Origin: Nitrospirota bacterium
Lineage (GTDB): Bacteria; Nitrospirota; Thermodesulfovibrionia; UBA6902; JAJYJJ01
Assembly: GCA_021789595.1 (NCBI GenBank)
Contig: JAJYJJ010000009.1
Span: 1,274-65,273 of the forward strand
DNA length: 64,000 nucleotides
Direction of reading: 5' to 3'
The notes under the pieces: generated by a model
What the model was told of the DNA's origin: nothing
What the model saw: only the letters and a program-made list of their open reading frames with translations
The model's database searches: none
In this document: piece after piece, positions 5,320 through 64,000 of the stretch
Numbering within the stretch: the stretch's first letter is position 1
Layout of the letters: the number at the start of each line of letters is the position of its first letter
Position numbers and translations under genes: made by a program

Positions 5320-6564
5320 ATGTGTGATGTTCAATGTGATGAGACAAGAAACATCTGGAAAGGTAAAACAGTCCCTGTAACAGAGGCAGTGGGAATGGTG
5401 CTGGCACACGATATCACAGAGATAAGGCAGGATGAATTTAAAGGCAGGGCATTTAAAAAAGGACATATTGTCAGACATGAGGATATAAGCCACCTTCAAA
5501 GGCTCGGCAAGGAACATCTATTTGTTCTAAACATTGCTGAAGACGAGATGCATGAAGACGATGCAGCGTATGCCCTGGCCAATGCCTTGATGGGCGAAGG
5601 CGTTACAATGGAAGGCGAACCAAAGGAGGGCAAGATAAATATTGTTGCTAATAGAGACGGGCTTTTGAAGATCAATAAGGATGCCCTTTTACAATTCAAT
5701 ATGCTCGGAGATGTTATGTGTGCAAGCCTTCATGATAATACCGTGGTAAAAAGTGGCCAGGTTGTTGCAGGCACGAGGGCAATACCGCTGGTGGTAAAAA
5801 GAAGAATAATTGAAGAGGCAATGGCAATTGCAGAAAAAGTTAGGGTAAAAATCCCCCCTTACCCCCCTTTAGTAAAGGGGGGATGGGGATTTGAGGGGAA
5901 TCAGGAGGATTATAAATTTACTGGAATAATTGCAGTTAAAAAAATGAGAAGGCCAAAGGCAGGCATCATTATTACAGGCAATGAGGTCTATTATGGAAGG
6001 ATAAAGGACGCCTTTGCACCGATTATCACAAAAAAGATCGAGACATTTAAAGGGGAAATTGTAGGGATCTACTATGCGCCTGATGATGAGGTTTTCATAG
6101 AGGCGAGATTGAGGGAACTAATAGAGGCTGGAGCTGATTTGCTAATTACAACAGGAGGCATGTCTGTTGACCCTGATGATGTAACAAGGTTTGCCATAAG
6201 AACACTTGGTGCAACTGATATCACATATGGCTCAGCAGTGCTTCCAGGTGCGATGTTTCTGGTCGCGTATTTTAATAAGTTAAAAGTTAAAAGTCAGAAG
6301 TCAGATAAACCCCTTAATCCTCCCATTACTAAGGGAGGACAGGAGGTGGACTCCGGACTCCAAACTCCAGACTCAGAACTGGTGACTATCTTGGGCATCC
6401 CTGCCTGTGGGATGTATCATAAAACTACAATATTTGATTTAATCCTTCTAAGGGTGCTTGCAGGAGAGAAAATCGGGAGATATGAGCTTGCAGAACTTGG
6501 ACATGGCGGATTATGCCTTAATTGCAAGGAGTGCAGATACCCTGTATGCCCATTTGGAAAATAG
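5320..6564 (+). CDS. molybdopterin-binding (MoCF_biosynth / MoeA-like) domain protein carrying two in-frame repeat-element insertions
   Basis: 414 aa with MoeA-like N-region and MoCF-binding core 'GIIITGNEVYYG...LLITTGGMSVDPDDV'. Two low-complexity inserts, 'IPPYPPLVKGGWGF' and 'KLKVKSQKSDKPLNPPITKGGQEVDSGLQTPDSE', are encoded by palindromic repeat DNA. Confidence 0.6.
   Translation: MCDVQCDETRNIWKGKTVPVTEAVGMVLAHDITEIRQDEFKGRAFKKGHIVRHEDISHLQRLGKEHLFVLNIAEDEMHEDDAAYALANALMGEGVTMEGEPKEGKINIVANRDGLLKINKDALLQFNMLGDVMCASLHDNTVVKSGQVVAGTRAIPLVVKRRIIEEAMAIAEKVRVKIPPYPPLVKGGWGFEGNQEDYKFTGIIAVKKMRRPKAGIIITGNEVYYGRIKDAFAPIITKKIETFKGEIVGIYYAPDDEVFIEARLRELIEAGADLLITTGGMSVDPDDVTRFAIRTLGATDITYGSAVLPGAMFLVAYFNKLKVKSQKSDKPLNPPITKGGQEVDSGLQTPDSELVTILGIPACGMYHKTTIFDLILLRVLAGEKIGRYELAELGHGGLCLNCKECRYPVCPFGK
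5848..5892. repeat. 45-bp G/C-run palindromic element (aaatcccccc-tt-acccccc-ttt agt aaagggggg-at-ggggat-tt) inserted in-frame in a CDS
   Basis: Imperfect inverted repeat with a 3-nt loop, seen directly in sequence. Length is a multiple of 3 and the reading frame is kept. Same family as the perfect copy at 61344..61390. Confidence 0.7.
6285..6390. repeat. composite repetitive insertion (direct repeats aagttaaaag x2, gactcc x4) flanking a diverged palindromic element (aaacccc-ttaatcctccc-att-act-aa-gggagg) inside the same CDS
   Basis: Seen in sequence. 'cctcccattactaagggagg' at 6319..6338 is a hairpin of the same style as the 61344 element. The insertion stays in frame. Confidence 0.5.
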
Positions 6565-31438: not shown

Positions 31439-32032
31439 ATGTTCTGCACTAAGATTCCGAGACTTATAGAAGATGGCCGTATCATGCTGCGACCTCTTCG
31501 GCTCAGCGATGGCCCATTCTTGAGTAATGGATTAAGAGACGAAGACATTTTGAAGGCAAAGGGGTTAAATAAGCCTGTATCTCCATCATGGTTTTTTATC
31601 TGGTGGTGGTTTAGAAAGACCTATATTTGCCCTTTCTGCATTGAATTGAATTCAATGCCCATAGGATTTATAGGTCTATACAACGTGAGACTCGGTAAAT
31701 CTGCCGAAATAAGTCTGGTGATATTCGACAAAACCTTAAGGAGACAGGGTTATGGGACCAGGGCGTTTAAGCTTTTTGCGAAAAGCCTGCAGAGGCATTC
31801 AGTAGTGGAAAAAATACTCATAAAGATTAAGGCAGATAACCACATTGCACTTTCATTCTGGAGGAAACTTGGTTTTGTGGAGGCAAGTATTTCGAATGGT
31901 ATAAATGGTATAATCAGTATGTCTATGGATTTATTAATGGCCTCAAAAATAGAATTGACACTAATTATAAAATCTCCCCTCGCCCCTCTTTGCCAAAGAG
32001 GGGAAATCCTACCTTTGGCAAAGGGAGGTTAG
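31439..32032 (+). CDS. GNAT family N-acetyltransferase whose C-terminus is encoded by a palindromic repeat element
   Basis: GNAT core 'IGFIGLYNV...RRQGYGTRAFKLF...WRKLGFVE'. The last ~20 codons ('IIKSPLAPLCQRGEILPLAKGG') are read from the repeat at 31968..32044. Confidence 0.55.
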   Translation: MFCTKIPRLIEDGRIMLRPLRLSDGPFLSNGLRDEDILKAKGLNKPVSPSWFFIWWWFRKTYICPFCIELNSMPIGFIGLYNVRLGKSAEISLVIFDKTLRRQGYGTRAFKLFAKSLQRHSVVEKILIKIKADNHIALSFWRKLGFVEASISNGINGIISMSMDLLMASKIELTLIIKSPLAPLCQRGEILPLAKGG

Positions 32033-32044
32033 GAGGGATTTTCA
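31968..32044. repeat. composite palindromic element (aaaatctcccct ... cccctctttgccaaagagggg ... cctacctttggcaaagggagg ... aggagggatttt)
   Basis: Nested inverted repeats with C5/G5-type arms, seen in sequence. Related in style to the 61344 element. Confidence 0.55.
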
Positions 32045-32111
32045 TATTTTATGTAATCATTAATTATGAGACCCTTAATAAATAGCAACTATTTATAAGA
32101 AGGGAAGTTTT

Positions 32112-48016: not shown

Positions 48017-51020
<3,004 letters not shown>

Positions 51021-51024
<4 letters not shown>

Positions 51025-52406
51025 TTCCTTGGCGCATGGATAGCTAAATTATGGGCATCCTCAGCAGCCTCCATCAAGCCCTCAGACAGGGTTGGATGGG
51101 CGTGTATTGTGTTGGCTATGTCCTGGATCTTAAGCTTTGCCCTAAGGGCAATAGCAATCTCATGGATGAGGTCAGATGCATGTGGACCAATGATATGGGC
51201 GCCGAGGAGGGCATCGTCCTCTGCATTGGCTATGAGCTTTATTATTCCTGAAATCTCTCCCATCGCATGGGCCTTGCCAAGTCCCCTGAACTGGAATCTG
51301 CCGATCCTGAGTCTGTAGCCTCTCTGGATAGCCTGATTTTCCCTCAAACCAACAGATGCAATCTCAGGTGATGTAAATATTGCAGCAGGGACAATAGAAT
51401 AATCCATCCGTTCGTCTTTACCAAGTGCATTGGCCGCTGCAATAAGGCCCTCTTTTGAGGCTACATGGGCAAGCAGTATTCCGCCAATGACATCGCCTAT
51501 GGCATAGACGCCGTCTACATTTGTCTGCATTCTGTCATCAACTACAATCTCTCCTCTCGGACCTTTTTTAATCCCTACATCCTCAATGCCCATGCCATCG
51601 CTGTTGAACGACCTTCCAATGGAAACAAGAACCTTTTCTGCAACAATCACCTTCCCATCACCGAGGAAGGCATGGATTTCGTCATCCTTCAATTCAACGG
51701 CATTGACCTTTGTATCTGTAAGGAGCTTTATCTTCTTTTTCTTTAGCTCCCTCTCAAGGATAGCTGAAATCTCTTCATCTTCTGTAGATACTGCCCGAGG
51801 AAGCATCTCAACCATAGTCACATCAGAGCCAAGTCCCCTGAAGATAAAAGCAAATTCGCAGCCTACAACACCAGCGCCGACTATGAGGATGCTCTTTGGT
51901 ATATCTTTGAGGTTGAGTGCATCGGTGCTCGAAAGGATCTTTTCACCGTCAAAGGGAAAGGTCGGAATCTGAGCTGGCCTTGAGCCTGTGGCGATAATTA
52001 TCCTGTCTGCATCTATCTCTTCAGCAGGGCTATTATTTACATCAACTCTTATCTTCCTCGGAGAGGCAATAACACCTCTGCCCTGCACAAGCCTGACACC
52101 CCAGCTCTTAAAAAGACCCTTGATTCCCTTTACCTGGATGGCAACTACCTTTTCCTTTCGCTCCATTATCCTGGCGATATCAGGCCTTACATTGCCTGTA
52201 AGTTCAAGACCAAATTCATCAAGCCTTCCTGCCCTGTCAATTGCCTCTGCAGAGGCAACAAGGGCCTTTGTCGGGATACAGCCTCGGTTAAGGCATGTCC
52301 CCCCTACCTCTGTGTCCTCTATGACAGTTACCTGAGCGCCGAGCTGTGCAGCCCTGATAGCAGCAACATAACCTCCTGGGCCTGCACCAATAATTGCAAG
52401 CCTCAT
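51021..52406 (-). CDS. lpdA: dihydrolipoyl dehydrogenase
   Basis: 'IIGAGPGGYVAAIRAAQLG', redox-active 'GGTCLNRGCIPTK', second Rossmann fold and dimerisation domain. Confidence 0.9.
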
Positions 52407-52789
52407 CTGCTCTCCTCTTCAACATGCTTTTCATACTCAGAGGCATCCATCAGATCGCTCAGTTCAGAAGGATCATCCATCTCGATTACTGCTATCCAGC
52501 CTTTCCCATATGGCTCCTCGTTTATTATTTCAGGCGAATCGGAAAGCTCCTCATTAACCTCGATAATCGTCCCGCCTACAGGACTTATTACCGATGATGT
52601 AGCCTTTGTGGATTCTATCTCCGTGAGCTCTGAATTTGCCTCCACAGCGCTATCAACCTCAGGAAGGTCTATGTAGACTATATCTCCTAACTCCTTCTGA
52701 GCATAGTCTGTAATGCCAATCGTTGCCTTCTTGCCTGAAACCCTTACCCATGTGTGCTCCTTGTGATACTTCAAGTCCTTTGGATTCAT
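52403..52789 (-). CDS. gcvH: glycine cleavage system H protein
   Basis: 128 aa, 'YHKEHTWVRV...ATIGITDYAQ' and lipoyl-lysine 'ESTKATS'. Confidence 0.9.
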   Translation of the reverse strand: MNPKDLKYHKEHTWVRVSGKKATIGITDYAQKELGDIVYIDLPEVDSAVEANSELTEIESTKATSSVISPVGGTIIEVNEELSDSPEIINEEPYGKGWIAVIEMDDPSELSDLMDASEYEKHVEEESR

Positions 52790-52874
52790 TATATCCCCTC
52801 CTTTAAAAATTTTAAAAATTCAATCTTCAGGTGAGTCAATTCTTAACATAGGATTTTACCTTTTGTCAATGGGT

Positions 52875-53726
52875 TTAATAAAACTCCTTCACAGTAGCAG
52901 CTAATCCTGACAGGTCGAAGGATTGCCTTACAAGGGGTTTATCCTTGATTACTGGTATTCTCTCCTCAAATATTGGACGGTTATTGCGATAGATTACACC
53001 AATAGGTATGCGCTGTCCCCATTCAAGGGCCTTTTTAAACGCCTCTGTCCTGTCTTCAGGGTTGTATTCTGGCTCTATGTGATAGACCCTCTGCCTATAC
53101 CATTCATAGGTATTGACTTTATTGAATGTTACACAGGGCTGAAGGATATCAACCAGAGAAAATCCCCTGTGGTTTACCGCCTCTTTTATCAGGCCTTTTA
53201 AATGCACATTATCGCCTGCAAATCCTCTTGCCACAAAGCTGCAGTCAAGGGCTACTGCCAGTGCCATGGGATTGAGCTGCTCAGAAAGGACTCCAAAGGG
53301 CTGATTCTTTGTTGTCATGCCCTCCATACTTGTAGGAGATGCCTGACCCTTTGTGAGTCCGTATATCTGGTTGTCATGCACAAAGAGTTTTACATTGATG
53401 TTCCTTCTCATGGCATGTATTAAGTGGTTTCCGCCCTCGCCATAACAGTCCCCATCTCCAGCAACGGCGATTACAAGCATCTCATGATCGGCAAGCCTTA
53501 TCCCTGATGCAACAGGGAGCGTCCTTCCGTGAAGGCCGTTGAAGGTATTACATTTCAGATAATGGGGGAATTTCCCTGCCTGACCTATTCCGGAGACAAT
53601 GGTAAACTGATAAGGCTCTATGGCAAGCTCCATCATGGCATCTTTAAATGACTTTAATATGCCGAAATTACCGCATCCAGGACACCATGCAGGGTTCTGC
53701 CCTTTATAATCATCTAAGGATGACAT
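52875..53726 (-). CDS. korB: 2-oxoacid:ferredoxin oxidoreductase beta subunit (TPP-binding, KorB-like)
   Basis: 'WCPGCGNFGI' and TPP motif 'AGDGDCYGEGGNHLIHAMRRNINVKLFVHDNQIYGLTKGQ'. Confidence 0.8.
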   Translation of the reverse strand: MSSLDDYKGQNPAWCPGCGNFGILKSFKDAMMELAIEPYQFTIVSGIGQAGKFPHYLKCNTFNGLHGRTLPVASGIRLADHEMLVIAVAGDGDCYGEGGNHLIHAMRRNINVKLFVHDNQIYGLTKGQASPTSMEGMTTKNQPFGVLSEQLNPMALAVALDCSFVARGFAGDNVHLKGLIKEAVNHRGFSLVDILQPCVTFNKVNTYEWYRQRVYHIEPEYNPEDRTEAFKKALEWGQRIPIGVIYRNNRPIFEERIPVIKDKPLVRQSFDLSGLAATVKEFY

Positions 53727-55431
53727 TTAATTCCTTCAATAACCCTTCCAGCGAAAACGGTCTTCCATCGTATTTATTAATCAATCTATTGAAAGTGTAT
53801 CCTGTTTCTGTCTTCATAAGGCGGGCGAACTGTCCTGTTGCATTATTTTCAATGCATAAGGTTAATCCTGCACTCTTCAGTACCTTAATGTAATTGAATT
53901 TAGCTGTGGACGGAAGTGGATAGATCTCACTGAAGTGCAGCATGGCTATACTATAATTCTTTGACAGCTCATCAACCACCTCCTTCATCACTCCATAGGT
54001 TGACCCCCACCCTGTAACTACTATCTCTGGATCAGAATCACCATAAAGAAATGGGGCATCTATCTCTTTTCTGATAAAGGGCGATTTCTTAAACAGTCTC
54101 TTTTGTACCATTTTTATCCTTGTCTCTGCATCCTCAACAATATGCCCTTCTTCATCATGTTCGTCGCTGTCTGTTACAACAAGGTGTTTTGCATCTCCAG
54201 GGACACCTAACAATGACACCCCGCTTTCAGTAAAGGCATGTCTTTTATATTCCCTGAGATCTCTAAATGCCTCGCCCCTTAATCTGTAATCTGTATATTT
54301 AACCCTGCTTAGATCAAACCCTTCAAATGTCCACTGGGAATCAGCAAGGTATTGGTCGGTAAGGATAAACACAGGTATCTGGTATTTCTCTGCTATATCA
54401 AATGCCTTGTTTGTGAGATAGAATGCCTGCTCAGGTGTGCCCGGGGCAAATATTACTCTTGGAAATTCCCCGTGTGCTGTATACAGGGCAAATTGCAGTT
54501 CAGCCTGTTCTGTTCTCGTGGGGAATCCTGTAGCAGGCCCCGGCCTCTGCGCAAGGGCAATGACTATCGGGGTCTCTGTCATGGCAGCCAAGGAAAGGCC
54601 CTCTACCATTAATGCAAAACCTCCTCCTGAGCTCCCTGTCATAGCCCTGACGCCTGCAAATGAAGCGCCCAATGCCATGTTAATGGCTGCAATCTCGTCC
54701 TCTGCCTGTTCAACGATAATTCCGTATTCCTTTGCCTTGCTCGCGATATAGAGCATAATCCCAGTCGAGGGTGTCATTGGATACGCTGAATAGAATTTAC
54801 AACCCGATGCAATAGCGCCAAGTCCTACAGCCTCATTTCCTGCAATTAAAAGTAGGGGCGAACTGCCGTTCGCCCCTACAGAGAATGAACATCGCAAACA
54901 TTCCTTCGCAGCATAATCATGGCCAGCCATAGCAGTATTGATATTCGCCTTTATAATATCTTCACCCTTCTTTTTGAATATATCCTTTATAATTTCAAGG
55001 AGGATGTTCAATTCCATGCCAAGCATGCCTAACACTGCTCCAGTGGCAACGGTGTTTGCCATTATCTTATTTCCGCCATGTTCTACCGCTAAATTGACGA
55101 AGGGGATGTCCACAGAGTTTTGAGTTGAGAGTTTAGAGTTATGACTTTTTGAGTCATAGATTATCTGACCGTATTCTGAAAGCTCTTTTTCATGAAGCAG
55201 TATGCTTTCTTTATCGAGGGCAACCAGGATATCAATAATGTCTCTGCATGCTGTTACAGGCTTGTCAGAAAACCTTATCTGGAAAAAATTGTGACCGCCC
55301 CTTATGCGTGACTCATAATCCTGATGGGTAAATACATGATAACCTGCCCTTGAAAATACCCTCGCAAGGGTGTCTCCAATAGTCTGTATACCCTGTCCTG
55401 CCTCACCGCCTATCTTGATTGAGTAGTCCAA
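53710..55431 (-). CDS. korA: 2-oxoacid:ferredoxin oxidoreductase alpha subunit with fused N-terminal gamma domain (KorA-like)
   Basis: 573 aa. N-terminal gamma-like 'IGGEAGQGIQTIGDTLARV', followed by the pyruvate-flavodoxin-OR-type alpha domain. Confidence 0.8.
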   Translation of the reverse strand: MDYSIKIGGEAGQGIQTIGDTLARVFSRAGYHVFTHQDYESRIRGGHNFFQIRFSDKPVTACRDIIDILVALDKESILLHEKELSEYGQIIYDSKSHNSKLSTQNSVDIPFVNLAVEHGGNKIMANTVATGAVLGMLGMELNILLEIIKDIFKKKGEDIIKANINTAMAGHDYAAKECLRCSFSVGANGSSPLLLIAGNEAVGLGAIASGCKFYSAYPMTPSTGIMLYIASKAKEYGIIVEQAEDEIAAINMALGASFAGVRAMTGSSGGGFALMVEGLSLAAMTETPIVIALAQRPGPATGFPTRTEQAELQFALYTAHGEFPRVIFAPGTPEQAFYLTNKAFDIAEKYQIPVFILTDQYLADSQWTFEGFDLSRVKYTDYRLRGEAFRDLREYKRHAFTESGVSLLGVPGDAKHLVVTDSDEHDEEGHIVEDAETRIKMVQKRLFKKSPFIRKEIDAPFLYGDSDPEIVVTGWGSTYGVMKEVVDELSKNYSIAMLHFSEIYPLPSTAKFNYIKVLKSAGLTLCIENNATGQFARLMKTETGYTFNRLINKYDGRPFSLEGLLKELNVILR

Positions 55432-55448
55432 GGAACCTTCTTGAACTT

Positions 55449-55703
55449 CTATTCCCTTTCTTCGAAATTCTTAATGAACTGCCCTATCTGGACACCGAGG
55501 TAAACGCATTTGAAGCCATCCATGCACTCATCGGCATCCCTTTTTTCAAGATGCGTTGTAAGCTCATTGCCATCCCTTTTAAACCTGACAATATATGCAT
55601 TGTTTTCTTCGTTAAATTCAAGTCCTACAGAAATGCCATGTTTTGAGATTTCAGGATACATCTCCATAATCTTCTCTTTTAATGCAACAACCGTATAACC
55701 CAC
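55449..55703 (-). CDS. small conserved-looking hypothetical protein (84 aa)
   Basis: ORF directly downstream of sod on the minus strand and upstream of korA. No motif recognised. Confidence 0.3.
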   Translation of the reverse strand: MGYTVVALKEKIMEMYPEISKHGISVGLEFNEENNAYIVRFKRDGNELTTHLEKRDADECMDGFKCVYLGVQIGQFIKNFEERE

Positions 55704-55730
55704 GTCCTTACCTCCTTAAACCGCGGGATA

Positions 55731-56309
55731 TTATCTCATCCTTGCTTCAACCGCCTTCCAGTCTATGTTCTTGAAGAACGAATCTATATAATCTGCCCTC
55801 TTGAGTCCATAATCAAGCATAAAGGCATGCTCAAATACATCCATTATCAATAGAGGGTTGCACCCTGCCGGATGCGAGACATCATGCTCATTTATCCAGA
55901 AATTGATAAGTTTCCCGTCTGTCATATCCTGATAAAGCACTGCCCAACCAATACCTCTCATTGTTCCTGTTGCCTTGAAGTCCTTTTCCCACAGCTCATA
56001 GCTTCCAAAATCTTCGGTCAGTTTGCTGGCAAGCCTCCCATCCTTGTCAATTCCACCTTTTCCGCCAAGATTCTCAAAATAGTACTCGTGAAGCCTCATT
56101 CCGTTAAATTCCCATCCCAGTCTCCTTTTCAACTCAGCAAATTCGGGGATTCCTGTCCTTCCGTCCTTTAACATATGCCCAAGCGTCTCAATGGCCTTGT
56201 TTGTATTTGTCACATAGCCCTGATAGAGGGTAAAGTGATTCTTTAAGAGTGTCTCACTGAATCCCTCCATACCGATAAGTCTTGAGTAATCCTTTGCGGT
56301 GTAAGCCAT
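55731..56309 (-). CDS. Fe/Mn superoxide dismutase
   Basis: 192 aa with 'HFTLYQGYV', 'DVFEHAFMLDY' and metal-ligand His/Asp positions. Confidence 0.9.
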   Translation of the reverse strand: MAYTAKDYSRLIGMEGFSETLLKNHFTLYQGYVTNTNKAIETLGHMLKDGRTGIPEFAELKRRLGWEFNGMRLHEYYFENLGGKGGIDKDGRLASKLTEDFGSYELWEKDFKATGTMRGIGWAVLYQDMTDGKLINFWINEHDVSHPAGCNPLLIMDVFEHAFMLDYGLKRADYIDSFFKNIDWKAVEARMR

Positions 56310-56349
56310 GGTCTTCCTCCTTATTTTAAATTTAAATTTACAGCAAATC

Positions 56350-57183
56350 CTATCTCACGATTACCCCTGCATAGCCAACCACATGTTCAAAATCCCCGCT
56401 TACTTCTCCTGATGTCATGTATTTAATGAGTTCTGCTTCTCTTGCGCCAAGGGCCTTTGATGCGGACAACATTGCTGTTGCCGGGGCAAATCCGCACATG
56501 GATATCCTCTCCTCCATAACGGTTCTATGAAGACCCTCTGGGTCGAGATCAAGGATCCTTTCTATGGCCTTCTTATCCTTTTGTCTTGCTATGTCATCAG
56601 GTTCATAATGGCTCATGTCAGAGCTTGCAACGATTACCACGGAGTGTGATGTCTGCTCTACTGCCTTGGCTATGGCCTCTCCGACTGCCATACAGTCCTC
56701 AAGGGAATGCGACATCATCGTAATCGGAACTATCATTACATTCTGAGAAAAATAAAGGATAAACGGAAGTTGAACCTCGAGTGAATGTTCGAAAAGATGG
56801 GCCTGTGCGTCCTCTTCTATAATTGCCCCCTCTGTAAGTATCTTGCCTGAGAGCTCTTCATCTATCTTTACCGTGCCAAGTGGAATCTCCCATTCTCCAT
56901 AGGACATAAGAGCGACCTTGGTGCCAAATCCAGTGTGGTTTGGGCCTATGAGTATAAATGTATGGGGGAATTTTATCCTCGAATATACTGCGCCTGCCAC
57001 AGCCCCTGAATACATAAGACCTGCATGAGGGGAAAGCACCCCAATCACCTTTTCTTTACCTGCTTCCCCGGAAAATCTGCGCCCCTCTGGTAATCCTGTC
57101 GCAATACATGCCTCTACCTGTGCCCTTAGTTTTGATAGATTGGCATAATAAAACTGTCCTGAAACAGCAGGTCTTCTCTTCAT
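56350..57183 (-). CDS. Memo-like / AmmeMemoRadiSam system protein B family
   Basis: 277 aa, 'VSGQFYY...VIGVLSPHAGLMYSGAVAG...GPNHTG...HSLEVQLPF...SSDMSHY'. Confidence 0.75.
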   Translation of the reverse strand: MKRRPAVSGQFYYANLSKLRAQVEACIATGLPEGRRFSGEAGKEKVIGVLSPHAGLMYSGAVAGAVYSRIKFPHTFILIGPNHTGFGTKVALMSYGEWEIPLGTVKIDEELSGKILTEGAIIEEDAQAHLFEHSLEVQLPFILYFSQNVMIVPITMMSHSLEDCMAVGEAIAKAVEQTSHSVVIVASSDMSHYEPDDIARQKDKKAIERILDLDPEGLHRTVMEERISMCGFAPATAMLSASKALGAREAELIKYMTSGEVSGDFEHVVGYAGVIVR

Positions 57184-57234
57184 ACTGCCCTCCTATCGAA
57201 CAGTTCAATTGGTTTGAACCCTTCCCCTCAGAGG

Positions 57235-58581
57235 TCAGAACACCTGATGGTCTGTATAGCTTTCAAACCTCGTGTATTTGTCCCTGAAGGTGAGATTCAC
57301 CGTTCCTATAGGGCCGTTTCTTTGCTTTGAAATGATCAGCTCTGCCTTGCCCTTGTTTGGGCCGTCAGGGTTATAGACCTCATCCCTGTAAAGAAAGATT
57401 ATAACATCGGCATCCTGCTCTATTGCACCTGATTCCCTGATATCAGCAAGGTTTGGTCTCTTATCATTCCTTTGTTCAACAGACCTGTTTAACTGGCTTA
57501 GTGCAACAACAGGAATCTTTAACTCCTTTGCAAGCGACTTTAAAGAACGGGAGATATCAGATACCTCCTGCTCCCTTCGCTCAAAACTACCCCTTCCCTT
57601 CATTAGCTGCAGGTAGTCGACTATGATTAAGCTCAGACCGTGCTCTGCCTTTAACCGCCTTGCCTTTGCCCTCATCTCAAAGACATTCGTATCTGTTCCA
57701 TCGTCTATAAAGATCGGCGCCTCTGTTAATCTTCCAGCGGCATTGGTGAGCTTTCGCCAGTCGTCCTTCCCGAGGAATCCTGAACGGACTGCCTTACTGT
57801 CAACCTCTGCCTCAGAGCAGAGCATCCTCAGGACAAGTTGCTCCTTTGACATCTCGAGGCTGAATATGGCAACCGGCTCTCTTTTTTCAATCGCAACATG
57901 CTGTGCCATATTCAAGGCAAGGGCGGTCTTTCCCATAGAAGGCCTGCCGCCTATGACTATCAGATCACATTGTTGGAGTCCTGATGTTTTATGGTCGAGG
58001 TCTGAAAAACCAGTGGGAAGCCCTGTGATGAGTTCCTTCTTCTCATACATCTGCTCTATCATCTCAAAGCTGTCCTTAATGACCTCCTTTATCCCCACAA
58101 ATGAAGGCCTTATCCTTCTCTCTGAAAGTTCAAACACCTTTTTCTCTGCATAATCCATCAGCTCATCTACCTCAAGGCTGTTTTCATAGCCGAGGGTTAT
58201 GAGCTCTGTTGCAGTCTTTATGAGATTCCTGATAGCAGACCTCTCCCTTACTATCCTTGCGTGGTATCTGATGTTAGCTGCTGTTGGAACTACTGTGGCA
58301 AGGGAGCTGAGGTATGATATGCCGCCCACGGCCTCAATAGCATCTTCCCTCTTCATGTAGTCGGTGAGGGTTATAAGGTCTATGGCCTCATTCTTATCAA
58401 AAAGCTCGAGCATGGCCTTAAATATCTTTCTATGGGATTCCTTATAAAAATCATCAGGCGAGATTATCTCTATTGCCCTGTGGATGGCTTCATTCTCAAG
58501 GAGGATTGCCCCAAGCACAGACTGCTCTGCCTCAAGGTTCTGAGGTGGCAGTCTGTCAAGGACAACATCTAATTCTTTCAT
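57235..58581 (-). CDS. dnaB: replicative DNA helicase
   Basis: 448 aa with N-terminal 'PPQNLEAEQSVLGAIL', Walker A 'GGRPSMGKT' and the RecA-like fold. Confidence 0.9.
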   Translation of the reverse strand: MKELDVVLDRLPPQNLEAEQSVLGAILLENEAIHRAIEIISPDDFYKESHRKIFKAMLELFDKNEAIDLITLTDYMKREDAIEAVGGISYLSSLATVVPTAANIRYHARIVRERSAIRNLIKTATELITLGYENSLEVDELMDYAEKKVFELSERRIRPSFVGIKEVIKDSFEMIEQMYEKKELITGLPTGFSDLDHKTSGLQQCDLIVIGGRPSMGKTALALNMAQHVAIEKREPVAIFSLEMSKEQLVLRMLCSEAEVDSKAVRSGFLGKDDWRKLTNAAGRLTEAPIFIDDGTDTNVFEMRAKARRLKAEHGLSLIIVDYLQLMKGRGSFERREQEVSDISRSLKSLAKELKIPVVALSQLNRSVEQRNDKRPNLADIRESGAIEQDADVIIFLYRDEVYNPDGPNKGKAELIISKQRNGPIGTVNLTFRDKYTRFESYTDHQVF

Positions 58582-59021
58582 TCCCTTACTACTATAACAT
58601 TCAAGGAGGCATTGGTCTCTGGATGGATCTTTACTGTTACAGTATATGTCCCGAGGCGTTTTATGGGCTCTTCAAGGATTATCCTTCTCTTATCTATCTC
58701 AACACCTTCCTTCAGCAATGCCTCGGCTATATCCATAGCAGTCACAGAGCCAAAAAGCCTATCCTCCTCCCCTGCCCTGGCAGGGATGGTTATTGTAGTT
58801 GAAGAGATCCTGGCGGCAATGTCATCTGCAGCCTTTTTCTCTTTCCTGGCCTTCTCTGCAACTATCTTTTTATAATGCTCAAACTCCTTTATATTCTTTG
58901 GATCTGCCTCAATGGCAAGTTTCTTAGGGATCAGAAAATTCCTTCCATACCCATCAGCCACATTCAAGATGTCACCCATCCTGCCGAGATCTTTAACATC
59001 TTCTCTAAGAATTACCTGCAT
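58578..59021 (-). CDS. rplI: 50S ribosomal protein L9
   Basis: 147 aa 'MQVILREDVKDLGRMGDILNVADGYGRNFLIP'. Confidence 0.9.
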   Translation of the reverse strand: MQVILREDVKDLGRMGDILNVADGYGRNFLIPKKLAIEADPKNIKEFEHYKKIVAEKARKEKKAADDIAARISSTTITIPARAGEEDRLFGSVTAMDIAEALLKEGVEIDKRRIILEEPIKRLGTYTVTVKIHPETNASLNVIVVRE

Positions 59022-59087
59022 CTATATCCCTCCTTTATTATGGATAAATCTATGAAAATAGTAACCCATGCATAAGCTAATTGTCAA

Positions 59088-61330
59088 TCAGTCAGTGCCA
59101 CGATCTCTTGTTTCAAGTGTTTTTTCATGGGGCACTGAAAGTGCAAATGCCTTTGATAGTTCCGCCACGGCCTGCATAAACCTTTTCTTTCCATCATCCT
59201 GCAGGAGGATACACTCCATTGCCTCTTTTATAACAGTCAACCTTTCGGCAGGACTGCCGGATAAGAATCTTGAATAGTCAAATCCATGAAACATTGATGA
59301 AACAATCTCATATTTCTCAAGCATTATAGCGACTGCCTCTTCCTGAGGAATGCCTGTCATGTCACGGTCTCTTTCTATGTAATCGGAAAGTGCCTTCTTC
59401 AGTTCATCTGCAATGCCAAGGTAATCAACCACCAGACCACCTGGTTTATCCTTAAATACCCTGTTGACTCTGGCTATTGCCTGCATAAGCCCGTGTCCGC
59501 GCATTGGCTTGTCTATATACATGGTATGAAGACAGGGAGCATCAAAGCCTGTGAGCCACATATCACGCACAATGACAAGTTTAAATGGATGCTCAGTTTT
59601 TTTTGAAAAGGTTTTTGCAAGTTTCTCTCTCTTTGCTTTGTTCCTGATATGCTGCTGCCATTCTACAGGATCAGATGCAGAACCGGTCATAACTACCTTC
59701 AAGAATCCCTTATCATTATCTTTATGATGCCATTCAGGCCTGAGTTTGATTAATGCATTATAGAGATCAACACATATACGCCTGCTCATGCAGACGATCA
59801 TGCCTTTCCCGTCCATAGCCTCAAGCCTTTTCGCAAAGTGATCAATAATGTCTTTCGCCACGAGGCCGATACGTTTTTCTGTCCCGACCATTGCCTCAAG
59901 CTGTGCCCATTTCCGCTTTAGCTTTTCCTTTACATTTATCTCTTCTCCCTCTGTCACTTCTTCAAATTCAGGGTCAATCCTTGGCCTTTCTTCTTCCCCT
60001 CTATAGGCGTACCTGTGAATCCGATAAACGAGGCGTTCGGAAGGGCATCTCTCATATGTCTGGCAAAGCCATCTATGAAGTCATACTGGCTCCTGTGCGC
60101 CTCATCAGCAATAACAATTATATTCCTTCTGTCAGAGAGCTTGGGATAATCCCCTCCTTTTTCAGGCAAAAACTTCTGTATGGTTGTAAACACAACACCG
60201 CCTGATGCGACATTGAGAAGCTTTCTAATATCTTCCCTGCTTCCCGCCTGCACGGGTGTCTGCCTGAGCAGGTCTCTGCACCGTGAAAATGTCCCGAACA
60301 ACTGGTCATCAAGGTCATTGCGGTCTGTAAGAAGAACGATCGTTGGATTCTGCATTTCAGGATGCTGTATTATCTTCCCAGCATAAAATACCATTGTCAG
60401 GCTTTTGCCACTCCCCTGTGTATGCCAGACAACACCAACCCGTTTGTCACCCTTTGGAGATACCGCCTGAATCGTACATTCAACAGCCTTATTTACTGCA
60501 TGGAATTGATGATATCCTGCCATCTTCTTTACAATTTCAGAGCCGTCAATCTCAAAGACAAGGAAGTATCTTAGTAAATCAAGAAATCTCTGCCTTTCAA
60601 AGATTCCCTTAATCATTACCTCAAGTTCAGGAAGACCCTTCGGAGCTAAATCATCTCCTGTTATTGTTCTCCACGGCAGAAACCATTCCCAGTCTGCAGT
60701 CAGAGTCCCTGCCCTTGCCTCTATACCGTCAGAGACAAGGAGGATTCCGTTATAAAGGAAAAGAGAGGGGATTTCTTTTTTGTATGTCTGCAATTGATTA
60801 AATGCATCCTTAACTGTTGCATTTTCGTCAGAGGGATTCTTAAGTTCAATTACACCTAATGGTATGCCATTCACGAAAACAACTATGTCAGGCCGTCTGT
60901 TACTTTGTCCTTCAACAACTGTGAACTGATTAACTGCCAGCCAGTTGTCGTTATCAAGATTGTCGAAATCTATAATCCCGACACTGTCACCAACAATCCG
61001 GCCTTCTGCGTCTTTATATTCAACCTCTATACCTTCAGTAAGCATTTTATGAAACCGATGATTGTTTGCTGCAAGAAGGGGCGATTCGTGAATAATCCTT
61101 GTTAATTTACGGAAGGCATCCTCAATTGCCTCATCTGGAATAGCAGGATTGATTTTCGTTAAAGCAGAACGAACCCTATTCTCAAGAATCACATCGCTGT
61201 AAGATGCCCGTTCAGCAAATAATTCACCAGAAGCAATATCTGGTTCATTGAGAACGGAATACCCCAACCCCTTGAACCAGTCAAGGGCTGCTTGTTCTAT
61301 TTCTGATTCTGTAATAATATTTCTCTTCAT
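59088..61330 (-). pseudogene. hsdR: type I restriction enzyme R subunit (HsdR), disrupted: frameshift at ~59955, internal deletion and truncated C-terminus
   Basis: Upstream ORF (458 aa) has the nuclease N-domain and helicase motifs '[13 protein letters not shown]', '[11 protein letters not shown]', 'GFTGTP'. Downstream ORF (289 aa, GTG start overlapping the first stop as GTGA) resumes at 'WAQLEAMVG' and carries '[15 protein letters not shown]'. About 100 aa expected between motif III and this point are missing, and the usual ~200 aa C-terminal domain is absent. Confidence 0.65.
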
Positions 61331-61343
61331 TTTTCAGTTTCCT

Positions 61344-61390
61344 AAATCCCCCTTAATCCCCCTTTAGCAAAGGGGGATTAAGGGGGATTT
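61344..61390. repeat. perfect 47-bp palindrome aaatcccccttaatcccccttt-agc-aaagggggattaagggggattt (22-nt arms, 3-nt loop)
   Basis: Seen directly in sequence, immediately upstream of the hsdR start. This is the best-preserved copy of the element family seen at 5848, ~6307 and 31968. Confidence 0.85.
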
Positions 61391-61666
61391 TTTACTCATT
61401 ATTTTTTTCTGTGATTCCATCTGACTATGTAGTATAATAGTCCCATGAAAAAGAAATCCCTCAAAGAAACCAATCCTTATTTAAAAGACCCAAAAAAATA
61501 CGAAGCTTCATTGGCTATAAATCTTGTAACATCCTCTGCGGTTGAAGGCATCCGCATAAGACCCTCTCAACTCCTCAAAAAGAACCTTAAATCTAAACGG
61601 ACTTAGATTTAATAGACCGCTCAATGATTTTTTTTAAAAGCCTTTCCATCGGTTTATAATCCCTGC

Positions 61667-61933
61667 TTAAGCCGCTGTTGATTGCGGCAAAATACTCTTT
61701 TCGTTTGAGCCATATTTTATGCTTGTTTTAATGTCTTCTGCTGTAAAACAATGGCTTGCATCATACCTGCGGAAAAGCTTATCAATCGCTGATGCAAGAG
61801 CCACGGACTCTGCCTCATCCATTTCTCTTTTCAACTTTATGCCAAGCTTGTTTTTTAGGACACGGCCGCGAGAGTCGGTCTCAAATTGGGCTTCGGGTAA
61901 AGCTGATGTGTCATAACGACCGGATTTTTTCAT
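61667..61933 (-). pseudogene. Fic/Doc-family protein N-terminal fragment (no HPFx[DE]GNGR core)
   Basis: 88 aa containing the conserved Fic N-terminal 'GRVLKNKLGIK...EAESVAL'. The ORF stops before the catalytic motif and no continuation is found in any frame. Confidence 0.45.
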
Positions 61934-62090
61934 ATCTTCTCCACAAACCTCTCCGCATCCTCACTATGATTTCCTCCGACAACAGCTTTGGCAGCAAGGT
62001 GTCACGGATAGAGGCGAGGGTGCGGGATTGTATCGCATTATTAATTCGTTTCTCTATTAAAGGACTTATAATTGTATCCAATAAATCTAA

Positions 62091-63026
62091 TTAATCAGGC
62101 GAAGGAATAAGAACTTTGGCTTCCGCCAGATGATGGCGCTGGATATGCCCCATCGTGGTAGCTTTAGTAGCTGCAATCGCTTGAAAATCTGATAAATAAT
62201 GTTTTGTCCACAAATAATAAAACCATTTGGGATAGTTTTTTGATGTTACCTTAAACAAATGCTGATTCAACGCACCACGACCACCGCACCATATAACTAC
62301 CTCAAGACTACCAGACCAAGAAAATAATATATCTCCATCGCTGACAATATAGGCAGGGTTAATATTAACACTTGCCTTATCGCTTCCTTCGGTGCTGTCT
62401 TTCCTTAATTGTGCAATTTTTATTACTGGCAGGAAATCATAATCATTTTCTGGTGGATACTTCTGCAAAGCTAATCCGTTCAGATAATCAGCTATTTCAC
62501 CAAGGCTTCCCACCCCCCACCCCTTCGGAATCTTGCCGAGCGGCGAATCTTGCCATTCTTTATGAGGGCCAAGGCCGGAGATATGGTCGAAGTCCACAAA
62601 CCATGATTTAAAAATCGCCCTTGCCATAGCCTCAAGTGTCTCATTCATTTTCCTGTTCAGTTCAATCTTATCATCCAGCGCACCTAAGATTGATGCAATG
62701 GCTTTTTGTTCGGGGAGAGGAGGGAGATTAAGCGTCAATCTTGCAATTGCACTTGCTGGCACTCGTTGCCGTCCTGTTGAACCTTCCATGTGCTGAATAG
62801 CATAATTTCTGAACTCAGGGTCTCCTACCAGGTAGTAAACAAAAAGGTTGTCAGATATGCCATCTTTACCTGAAAGCACTATAAATTCGGTTGAACCATG
62901 TCCTACGACATCATCAGGTAAGCAACTTAAGAATACTGTTTTACCATTTTCAAGACAAGGTGTAATTCTTGCCAACAAAGTATCACCATTTTGAAATCGT
63001 GAACCAGAACCTTTAAATTCTTTCAT
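62091..63026 (-). CDS. hsdS: type I R-M specificity subunit HsdS, atypical/truncated (starts mid-TRD, lacks distal conserved repeat)
   Basis: 311 aa with central conserved region 'LPPLPEQKAIASILGALDDKIELNRKMNETLEAMARAIFKSWFVDFD' flanked by TRD-like sequence. The N-terminus 'GDTLLARITPCLENGK' is normally internal to a TRD. Confidence 0.6.
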   Translation of the reverse strand: MKEFKGSGSRFQNGDTLLARITPCLENGKTVFLSCLPDDVVGHGSTEFIVLSGKDGISDNLFVYYLVGDPEFRNYAIQHMEGSTGRQRVPASAIARLTLNLPPLPEQKAIASILGALDDKIELNRKMNETLEAMARAIFKSWFVDFDHISGLGPHKEWQDSPLGKIPKGWGVGSLGEIADYLNGLALQKYPPENDYDFLPVIKIAQLRKDSTEGSDKASVNINPAYIVSDGDILFSWSGSLEVVIWCGGRGALNQHLFKVTSKNYPKWFYYLWTKHYLSDFQAIAATKATTMGHIQRHHLAEAKVLIPSPD

Positions 63027-63204
63027 TTCAAAATGATTAATCGTACGGGTAAAAGGCTACACAATATCCATAGAAACATGAGGTGCGAGTTCTCCTCGTA
63101 AAATTTTTCGTGGAGGGTTTATATCTACTGCGTCTTCAAATATCATTTCCTTCCACTTATCCCCCATTCCCCAACCCCTTCAAATTTCCAATGCCTGTTT
63201 TGCA

Positions 63205-63249
63205 GGGGCGACCTGTTGGGTCGCCCAAAGAGGGCGAGGCCTCGCCCCT
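63205..63249. repeat. tandem GC-rich hairpins (ggggcgacc-tgtt-gggtcgccc; agggcgagg-cctcgccct) preceded by C-run motif atcccccattcccc
   Basis: Seen in sequence, between the ORF6N stop and the hsdS start on the minus strand. Terminator-like, but it lacks a U-tract. Confidence 0.45.
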
Positions 63250-63285
63250 ACATGATAATGTTGTAATGAATTATTAATCCTGCAA

Positions 63286-63851
63286 TTATACATCATGTTC
63301 TTGCTTCCTGCGGCTTGATATTTTGTACCTTGCGCCTTTTTCCCTCACTCTGAATCCGATTTTCTTTTCCTTTGGTTCAGGTTGTGCCATGAGCTGACGA
63401 ATGGCGTCAAAAACAACCCTGAATTGGGCATCGTATTTCTTTTCAAGCTCATCAAGCCTTTTTGCAAGGTCTTTATGAGAGGCTATCATTTCCCTGAGCT
63501 TTACGAACGCACGCATTATGTGAATGTTTACTTCTATCGCTCTCTCGCTATTTAGCACAGTTGAAAGCATAGCAACCCCTTGTTCGGTAAAAACATAGGG
63601 CTGATACCCTCCAAGATGTTTGCGTGAAGGTATCGCATTTTGCGATACCATAATGTCAATCTCCTGTTCATTTAATTGGAACATAAAGTCTTCAGGGAAA
63701 CGTCTCATGTTTCGTTTGACTTGCTCTCTCAATCGTATCGGTTTTACACTATAAAGACCTGCAGGTCTTTATCCAGCATGACTTTATGACCACGAATCAA
63801 ATAGATTTTTCGTTCGATCACTTCAACAGGAATAATTTCTTTCATCCGCCC
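63286..63851 (-). pseudogene. ORF6N-domain protein (common hsdM-hsdS intervening gene) with a frameshift at the palindrome GACCTGCAGGTC (~63757-63768)
   Basis: The downstream frame gives '[28 protein letters not shown]...' (ORF6N core). The upstream ATG frame gives '[28 protein letters not shown]' and then hits a stop. The two halves join only after a 1-nt frame change. Confidence 0.5.
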
Positions 63852-63929
63852 TCCTTTTTGTGTAAAGCAAAATGCGGATTCGCTTTACACAAAATATTTT
63901 ATGCCCATTCCACTTGTCATAAAATCTCT

Positions 63930-64000
63930 ATTTTTCAAAGAAATATCTACGATTAGCCTTTATTGCCTTCTCAAGCTCTGTGCTTTCTGCAAACTGCTCT
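63930..64000 (-). CDS. hsdM: probable 3' end of hsdM (type I methyltransferase), partial at window edge
   Basis: The reverse strand reads '...EQFAESTELEKAIKANRRYFFEK*', consistent with an HsdM C-terminus. Only ~23 codons are in the window. Confidence 0.3.

Follow-up and report, generated by a model that had tools for sequence, protein, structure and literature searches.

Restriction-modification (R-M) operons are known to house genes other than those of their own subunits: Fic/Doc-like and other toxin genes embedded in such operons have been described (PMC3710099), as has PrrC (PMC12707154). Where class I Fic toxins are concerned, the genes of the known antitoxins directly precede those of the toxins, on the same strand, and the inhibitory motif of Fic antitoxins is (S/T)xxxE(G/N) (PMC3667792). 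Here we describe a damaged type I R-M locus of the order hsdM (3' end)-ORF6N-hsdS-Fic-hsdR, identified by open reading frame (ORF) listing and domain searches on the minus strand of positions 59088-64000 of a 64,000-nt stretch of Nitrospirota contig JAJYJJ010000009.1 (the window, by which we mean the whole stretch analysed). Like the accessory toxin-like genes embedded in R-M operons (PrrC in EcoprrI, and RhuM-like and Fic/Doc-like genes), the Fic and ORF6N genes of this locus lie between hsd genes, and they match the PADLOC candidate defence families PDC-S04 and PDC-S05, but both of them are inactivated here.

The locus resembles type I R-M systems in that its three subunit genes follow the usual order and still show their domains (HSDR_N, SWI2_SNF2, T1R_D3-like and T1RH-like_C; HsdM_N and N6_Mtase; Methylase_S twice), and it differs from them in that every subunit gene is disrupted, which makes it a relic rather than a working member. 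While hsdM, hsdS and hsdR were jointly detected by domain hits, each was present as a remnant, and none of HsdR, HsdM and HsdS retained the integrity by which we judged whether a type I R-M system is functional. Read along the minus strand, the end of hsdM is followed by ORF6N, which occupies two frames, by a pair of GC hairpins and by a Methylase_S ORF of 311 aa; then come an 88-aa ORF, a 47-bp palindrome and HsdR in two ORFs (458 and 289 aa). About 10 independent lesions are spread across some 6.2 kb of the locus. The description of this stretch as a decayed type I R-M locus with a Fic fragment and repeat elements, given by a sequence-only reading of the same DNA, is correct, and the lesions of every gene have now been mapped against intact homologues. 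Neither restriction nor methylation is possible, because the defining motifs have been lost. What that reading overlooked is a 53-aa ORF on the opposite strand, the sole intact gene of the relic.

We consider with high confidence that the locus as a whole is best explained as an acquired type I R-M island upstream of rplI-dnaB that decayed gene by gene and in which the 53-aa gene stayed intact. A type I R-M island with the order hsdM - ORF6N - hsdS - Fic / small convergent ORF - hsdR would have been acquired horizontally and inserted upstream of rplI-dnaB in this Nitrospirota lineage, and ordinary mutational decay would then have inactivated its genes one after another. The lesions comprise deletions flanked by microhomology (in hsdR 127 nt and the 3' end, in hsdM 363 nt, in Fic about 310 nt), small insertions or deletions (-1 in ORF6N, -1 in Fic and +2 in hsdM), two substitutions that put nonsense codons into hsdS, and hairpin repeats that were inserted.

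The restriction arm had been described as looking dead, and it is: hsdR carries a 127-nt out-of-frame deletion and has lost its last 239 codons. Intact HsdR relatives in metagenomes are about 1022 aa long and up to 83% identical to the window fragments. The first pseudogene fragment (59954..61330, minus strand) holds the nuclease domain and the helicase motifs up to GFTGTPIE (TIGR00348 positions 1-414, HSDR_N and SWI2_SNF2), and the second (59088..59957, minus strand) matches TIGR00348 positions 479-672 and T1RH-like_C over just 3-91 of 329. Protein and DNA alignments place the deletion junction between 59997 and 59998, after motif III (GFTGTPIE), where the sequence reads cctatagagg followed by ggaagaag; the DNA alignment with the hsdR of contig L006 shows GG microhomology at the junction (59996..59999, minus strand). 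The deletion takes residues ~443-485 (about 42 codons, not the ~100 aa once estimated to be missing after helicase motif III) and shifts the frame, and a 13-residue hsdR peptide remains encoded ahead of the GTG "start" of the second fragment. The two ORFs do overlap as GTGA, as the sequence-only reading had it, but the split is not caused there: the junction lies about 40 nt upstream of that stop/start overlap, and the overlap is a by-product, because the 127-nt deletion is the actual lesion. The C-terminal truncation was likewise real but underestimated at ~200 aa, since homology stops at codon 783 (window 59103) and the final 239 residues are gone. The nearest solved relative, EcoR124I HsdR (PDB 2W00), is a distant one (E 4e-38), and no subtype from IA to IE was assigned because the match covers residues 113-485 only.

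The hsdS pseudogene (61911..63167, minus strand) proved more complete than had been supposed. It had been read as starting within a target recognition domain (TRD) and lacking the distal conserved repeat; the whole 402-codon frame is in fact present, with two TRDs and both conserved regions, broken by two nonsense codons, TAG at 63057-63059 and TAA at 62091-62093. A single-frame translation of 63284-61908 crosses the whole gene from the ATG at 63167 with these two stops as its sole interruptions, the distal conserved region (LASIRDTLLPKLLSEEI) stands in frame after the TAA, and the tblastn alignment of the HsdS of contig L005 passes through that TAA in frame. The reconstructed 402-aa HsdS aligns in one piece, over residues 3-402, with an annotated intact HsdS, and Pfam Methylase_S matches it twice. 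Aligning HsdR and HsdS with intact homologues, a check that the sequence-only reading had itself proposed, is what mapped the hsdR deletions and the hsdS nonsense codons.

As had been stated, hsdM reaches into the window with its 3' end only; the last 24 codons lie at 63928..64000 (minus strand), where the translation ends in EQFAESTELEKAIKANRRYFFEK and a stop. The remainder of the pseudogene was read beyond the window edge from contig L001 (6058-7403), which shares 99.993% identity with the window along 14,047 nt. There, hsdM is preceded by an adenylylsulfate (APS) kinase gene and split into an HsdM_N piece (217 aa) and an N6_Mtase piece (231/250 aa). An in-frame deletion of 363 nt, flanked by CATT(T/C)T, takes 121 codons, among them S-adenosylmethionine (AdoMet) motif I (DPCCGSGGM in the intact homologue), and a +2-nt insertion shifts the frame after NPPFNVSDW...RWRYG. 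At L001 7056-7170, the variable linker of hsdM carries a net 93-nt insertion with three short GC hairpins, which is in frame and translates as SPLPSVGEGISKSSSPLAGDGISKFPSPLAGEGKGEG. The methylation arm is dead too, because hsdM has lost 121 codons including motif I and carries the +2 frameshift. This locus should therefore yield no methylation motif, and the eight "genes" that gene callers place here in L001 are fragments that should carry pseudogene annotation.

Between these subunit genes, ORF6N (KilA-N-like, PADLOC candidate PDC-S05, with Pfam and PADLOC matches) is a pseudogene at 63286..63845 (minus strand). It has lost one G, by which CTG-GCA-GGT became CTGCAGGT; once this is repaired, the Pfam domain is complete (E 3e-32, profile positions 2-86), whereas the largest unrepaired ORF covers just 29-86. 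The same loss converts a near-palindrome into the perfect 22-bp palindrome ATAAAGACCTGCAGGTCTTTAT at 63751..63772, an inverted repeat that contains the frameshift. That ORF6N is split by a 1-nt frameshift located exactly in a palindrome was thus well observed, although the palindrome measures 22 bp and not 12 bp. The ORF6N homologue that was examined, in L005, has no palindrome at that position, and we infer that the deletion is compatible with a template-switch type of mutation rather than a designed switch. A literature search found nothing on ORF6N combined with Fic and R-M.

Several readings that would leave this locus with some activity have to be weighed against the decay of an acquired island. 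The frameshifts and truncations might be sequencing or assembly errors, with R-M intact in the living organism; the source is after all a metagenome assembly. Exact HsdR, HsdS and RplI fragments were traced to four public contigs, and the gene arrangement is identical in all four. Two of these contigs, from at least two assemblers (the European Nucleotide Archive (ENA) MEGAHIT contig L001 and the Logan contig L002), were aligned with window 49954-64000 and differ by one mismatch in 14,047 nt, and an exact-protein look-up of RplI returned the same decayed context only and no other allele. Variation at the lesion sites, which the sequence-only reading had suggested looking for, did not appear as any contig with a different arrangement. 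Moreover, the majority of the lesions are large deletions or base substitutions; deletions of 127, 363 and about 310 nt, a loss of 239 codons and two nonsense substitutions are not products of indel-type read errors, and the flanking housekeeping genes are intact. Two points weigh on the other side: the four contigs may derive from overlapping read sets, and the lesions of hsdM come from the near-identical contig and not from the window itself. Even with these in mind, we consider errors of this kind extremely unlikely.

A dead restriction arm with HsdM and HsdS persisting as an orphan methyltransferase is an outcome with good precedent, as methyltransferases commonly survive the loss of their nuclease as orphans (PMC12707154), and the C-terminal part of hsdM with its NPPF motif remains readable. 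The sequence-only reading had allowed that hsdM, and perhaps hsdS, may persist in this way, but the loss of motif I, the +2 frameshift and the two in-frame stops in hsdS contradict it, and we hold it to be very unlikely. The position of the ORF6N frameshift at the centre of a perfect 22-bp palindrome had further prompted the idea of a phase-variation point, and one may imagine reversible switching at this palindrome or at the hsdR GTGA. This we find scarcely credible: none of the lesion sites has a homopolymer or simple-sequence repeat, the ORF6N lesion is a GG to G loss, the homologue lacks the palindrome, and the hsdR "frameshift" is really a 127-nt deletion. The locus has a single hsdS, without invertible copies, and encodes no recombinase, and no differently arranged contig was found; besides, some ten independent lesions cannot all revert, and reactivating one gene would not rescue the locus. 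Decay of an acquired island accounts for the locus far better than any of these.

The genomic setting points to how the island arrived. Immediately after the relic come four intact genes: rplI, dnaB, one of Memo-like type, and sodB. The closest DnaB proteins among species-representative genomes are just 67% identical and belong to Thermodesulfovibrio, Thermodesulfovibrionales and Nitrospirota metagenome-assembled genomes. In 11 Nitrospirota/Thermodesulfovibrionales relatives, the rplI-dnaB adjacency is kept (with the Memo-like gene also present in 10 of them), and a search of up to ~9.5 kb upstream of rplI matched neither HsdR nor HsdM in any of the 11. Because these syntenic relatives have neither gene there, we regard the island as lineage-specific and acquired. 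Base composition gives no island signal (0.39-0.46 GC in the relic against 0.40-0.48 in the flanks). The intact locus of L005 has the layout hsdM-ORF6N-hsdS-cargo-hsdR; intact relatives (L005 and L006) share the layout of the island, and what varies among them is the cargo between hsdS and hsdR. By itself the relic carries little weight, as decayed R-M islands are common and R-M decay is ordinary; what it records is the gain and loss of a defence island beside essential genes in an uncultured Nitrospirota lineage.

The cargo slot of this island is occupied by Fic and the small convergent ORF. The Fic pseudogene (61593..61933, minus strand; class-I-like, PADLOC candidate PDC-S04) retains residues 1-76 and 180-216 of 216 and has a 1-nt deletion. 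The 88-aa N-terminal stub noted earlier is confirmed as an ORF at 61667-61933, but it is not all that is left, as the C-terminal 37 codons survive in another frame at 61596-61706, with the stop codon at 61593. Set against the 216-aa orthologue of contig L010, the window copy reads residues 1-71, the 1-nt deletion, HKIWL and then 180-216, so that residues 77-179 (~103 codons, ~310 nt) are deleted, including the catalytic core with HPFREGNGR. The motif HPFx(D/E)GNGRxxR, lost in the window, is present as HPFREGNGRVAR in the intact L010 orthologue. No Pfam or NCBIfam hit was obtained for the stub, and dS was saturated when dN/dS, the ratio of nonsynonymous (dN) to synonymous (dS) substitution rates, was estimated for the N-terminal remnant. 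The intact Fic partner matches VbhT, E. coli FicT and other Fic chains in the PDB.

The Fic toxin is lost recurrently and independently. At least 6 different internal deletions drop the catalytic core and yet keep both the 5' end and the 3' end that the small ORF overlaps (L108-L110, L112-L113, L122-L126, L141, L142 and window 61593-61933). Other states of the module were also seen. The locus of contigs L007-L010, which is 73% nucleotide-identical to window 60950-61933, has a relic hsdR reduced to a 149-aa HSDR_N fragment abutting pabB (e.g. L010 267-716), with Fic and the small ORF intact alongside. A Candidatus Brocadia contig (L012 5150-5900) has an uncalled Fic gene with in-frame stops beside an intact small ORF, and although the organism belongs to a different phylum, the sequence ahead of that small ORF, half of the hairpin included, shares ~78% identity with the window. 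Sequence likeness of this order suggests that the Fic/small-ORF module may spread horizontally. In L011 (5001-5319), the small ORF and a 58-aa Fic remnant lie inside a type I-C CRISPR-cas operon, between cas7 and cas4, and because of this copy the module is not confined to R-M loci.

The small ORF itself (61445..61606, plus strand) encodes 53 aa with the motif S30-S-A-V-E34-G35 and is convergent with Fic, which it overlaps by 14 nt at the 3' ends. It is the only reading frame left intact in the relic, and the gene is probably still functional. Its family comprises 97 protein clusters, and 422 related stretches were found in the Joint Genome Institute (JGI) metagenome collection. The N-terminus is almost invariant (MKKKSLKETNPYLKD), and within the SSAVEG of residues 30-35, no change occurs at S30, A32 or E34 across 32 sequences and hardly any at V33 or G35. 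Between the window ORF and the L010 copy, dN is 0.065 and dS 0.91 (dN/dS 0.07), and because of this difference the sequence must be conserved as a protein. A TATAAT -10 box, intact in the window at 61433..61438 (plus strand), ends 6 nt before the ATG, and gTATAATaa 6-7 nt before the ATG is the sole conserved element in most of 65 distinct upstream regions, a position that implies a leaderless or near-leaderless transcript if this box is indeed used.

We analysed 80 related metagenome loci, 75 of which had enough downstream sequence to judge what follows the small ORF. A convergent Fic gene lies directly downstream in 70 of the 75, being full length in 39, decayed in 23 and interrupted by the end of the contig in 8, and the small ORF is downstream of and convergent with Fic, with the same 14-nt 3' overlap, in both the window and L007-L010. 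On the other side, the 5' end of hsdR diverges from the small ORF in 25 of 58 related loci. Distant members of the family (L096, L097 and L098-L101) converge on other genes in defence-island settings: the remnant of a DUF3800 gene, an uncharacterised 196-aa protein that has SIR2 and ParE as neighbours inside a type I R-M locus, and a TPR-like protein of 435-462 aa next to DUF3644 and TIR. The thought that the family might be enriched in phages was rejected, a scan of viral contigs having given just 4 weak hits. A likeness of the small ORF to the C-terminal 37 aa of Fic (31% identity, E 0.029 in a 900-nt search space) was judged too weak to use.

It is quite possible, at close to even chances in our estimation, that the 53-aa protein is the antitoxin partner of the Fic toxin. 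The gene would then encode the inhibitory-helix antitoxin of a class-I-type Fic, would be transcribed from its own conserved near-leaderless promoter toward the 3' end of Fic, and would have outlived its toxin here as in many related loci. The S-x-A-V-E-G of the small ORF fits the (S/T)xxxE(G/N) antitoxin signature, and the L010 Fic sequence, on our reading of it, lacks an inhibitory motif of its own. When the small family was searched as a profile, it gave a weak match (E 0.47), aligned on the motif, to 5nh2_B, a 69-aa chain co-crystallised with a Fic AMP-transferase. The pair is similar to the class I Fic modules (VbhT/VbhA, E. coli FicT/YhfG and Fic-1/AntF) in that the intact Fic orthologues have HPFx(D/E)GNGR and apparently no internal inhibitory helix, and in that a separate small partner carries the (S/T)xxxE(G/N) signature. 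It departs from them in that the small gene has no detectable sequence-family match to known antitoxins, and in that it is downstream, convergent and 3'-overlapping with a leaderless-type promoter of its own, where the known antitoxins are upstream and co-transcribed.

This unusual layout, unlike that of the upstream, same-strand class I antitoxins, counts against an antitoxin, and so do several further observations. Three more distant family members adjoin non-Fic genes; the 53-aa ORF has no Pfam, NCBIfam or PADLOC match; the profile match to the Fic partner chain has an E of 0.47 only; AF2 (AlphaFold2) modelled the 53-aa protein with low confidence (pLDDT, the predicted local distance difference test, 69), and a Foldseek search of the model against the PDB returned no meaningful match; and the 80 loci were chosen for containing the small ORF, so that the counts run from small ORF to Fic only. 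The protein could instead be a general small regulator or partner of variable defence-island cargo, or the gene could act mainly by antisense transcription into its neighbour. The convergence of the distant members on non-Fic genes would agree with this, as would the persistence of the small gene where Fic is destroyed and its constant position on the strand opposite its neighbours. We take this to be a real possibility, if one that we would not favour: in the closer subfamily Fic is the gene directly downstream in nearly all loci, the invariant S-x-A-V-E-G fits the Fic inhibitory motif, and strong protein-level purifying selection speaks against a purely RNA role.

Returning to the antitoxin, we would tentatively propose an undescribed Fic-antitoxin family that is leaderless, convergent and overlapping with the toxin 3' end, in a module typically placed just upstream of hsdR within type I R-M operons. 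Independent internal deletions would repeatedly remove the toxin core from this module but spare the antitoxin and the part of the toxin gene that it overlaps, and distant members of the family are maybe promiscuous partners of other defence genes. If the 53-aa protein is an antitoxin, the class I Fic toxin-antitoxin concept extends to a convergent gene layout. The small ORF is the one lead from this relic worth keeping, being widespread, unannotated and tightly linked to R-M-embedded Fic genes.

The relic also carries repeat elements, and those reported from the sequence stood up to closer analysis. The perfect 47-bp palindrome lies at 61344..61390, between the hsdR start and the small-ORF promoter, with 22-nt arms and a T-run after it on the plus strand; it folds with z-scores of -6.6 and -7.4, a stability reached by 0 of 200 shuffled sequences. 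Two adjacent GC-rich REP-like (repetitive extragenic palindromic) hairpins occupy 63206..63247, between the ORF6N stop and the hsdS start. These twin hairpins (63206-63226 and 63232-63247) have a fold z-score of -5.4, and each pattern finds one exact match where 0.03-0.09 would be expected. Together with the hairpins inserted in hsdM, they are of the same general kind as the 47-bp palindrome; a hairpin of the hsdM type, searched for in the window, had no match there. In related loci, the interval from hsdR to the small-ORF promoter is likewise filled by hairpins, though by different and unrelated ones. We read all these repeats as REP-like elements that settled in the island, the 47-bp element being terminator-like as well. 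They are similar to REP repeats and miniature inverted-repeat transposable elements (MITEs) in being short, GC-rich, perfect or near-perfect intergenic hairpins in an AT-rich genome, with several related copies in 64 kb, and dissimilar in that no Rfam family covers the window elements; sub-threshold Rfam matches of the palindrome to miRNA-like families were rejected as generic hairpin matches.

Related copies of the 47-bp element, of the AAATCCCCC...GGGGGATTT type, are found elsewhere in the window, at 5846-5895 and 31968-32045. They overlap long ORFs (5320-6564 and 31439-32032) and may be in-frame insertions like that in hsdM.

At the other end of the relic, right after the truncated hsdR and exactly at its truncation junction, stands a near-consensus, promoter-like TTGACA-18-TACTAT (59058..59087, minus strand; a consensus match only), 37 nt upstream of rplI. 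Judged from this element, rplI-dnaB probably keeps a promoter of its own, independent of read-through from the relic.

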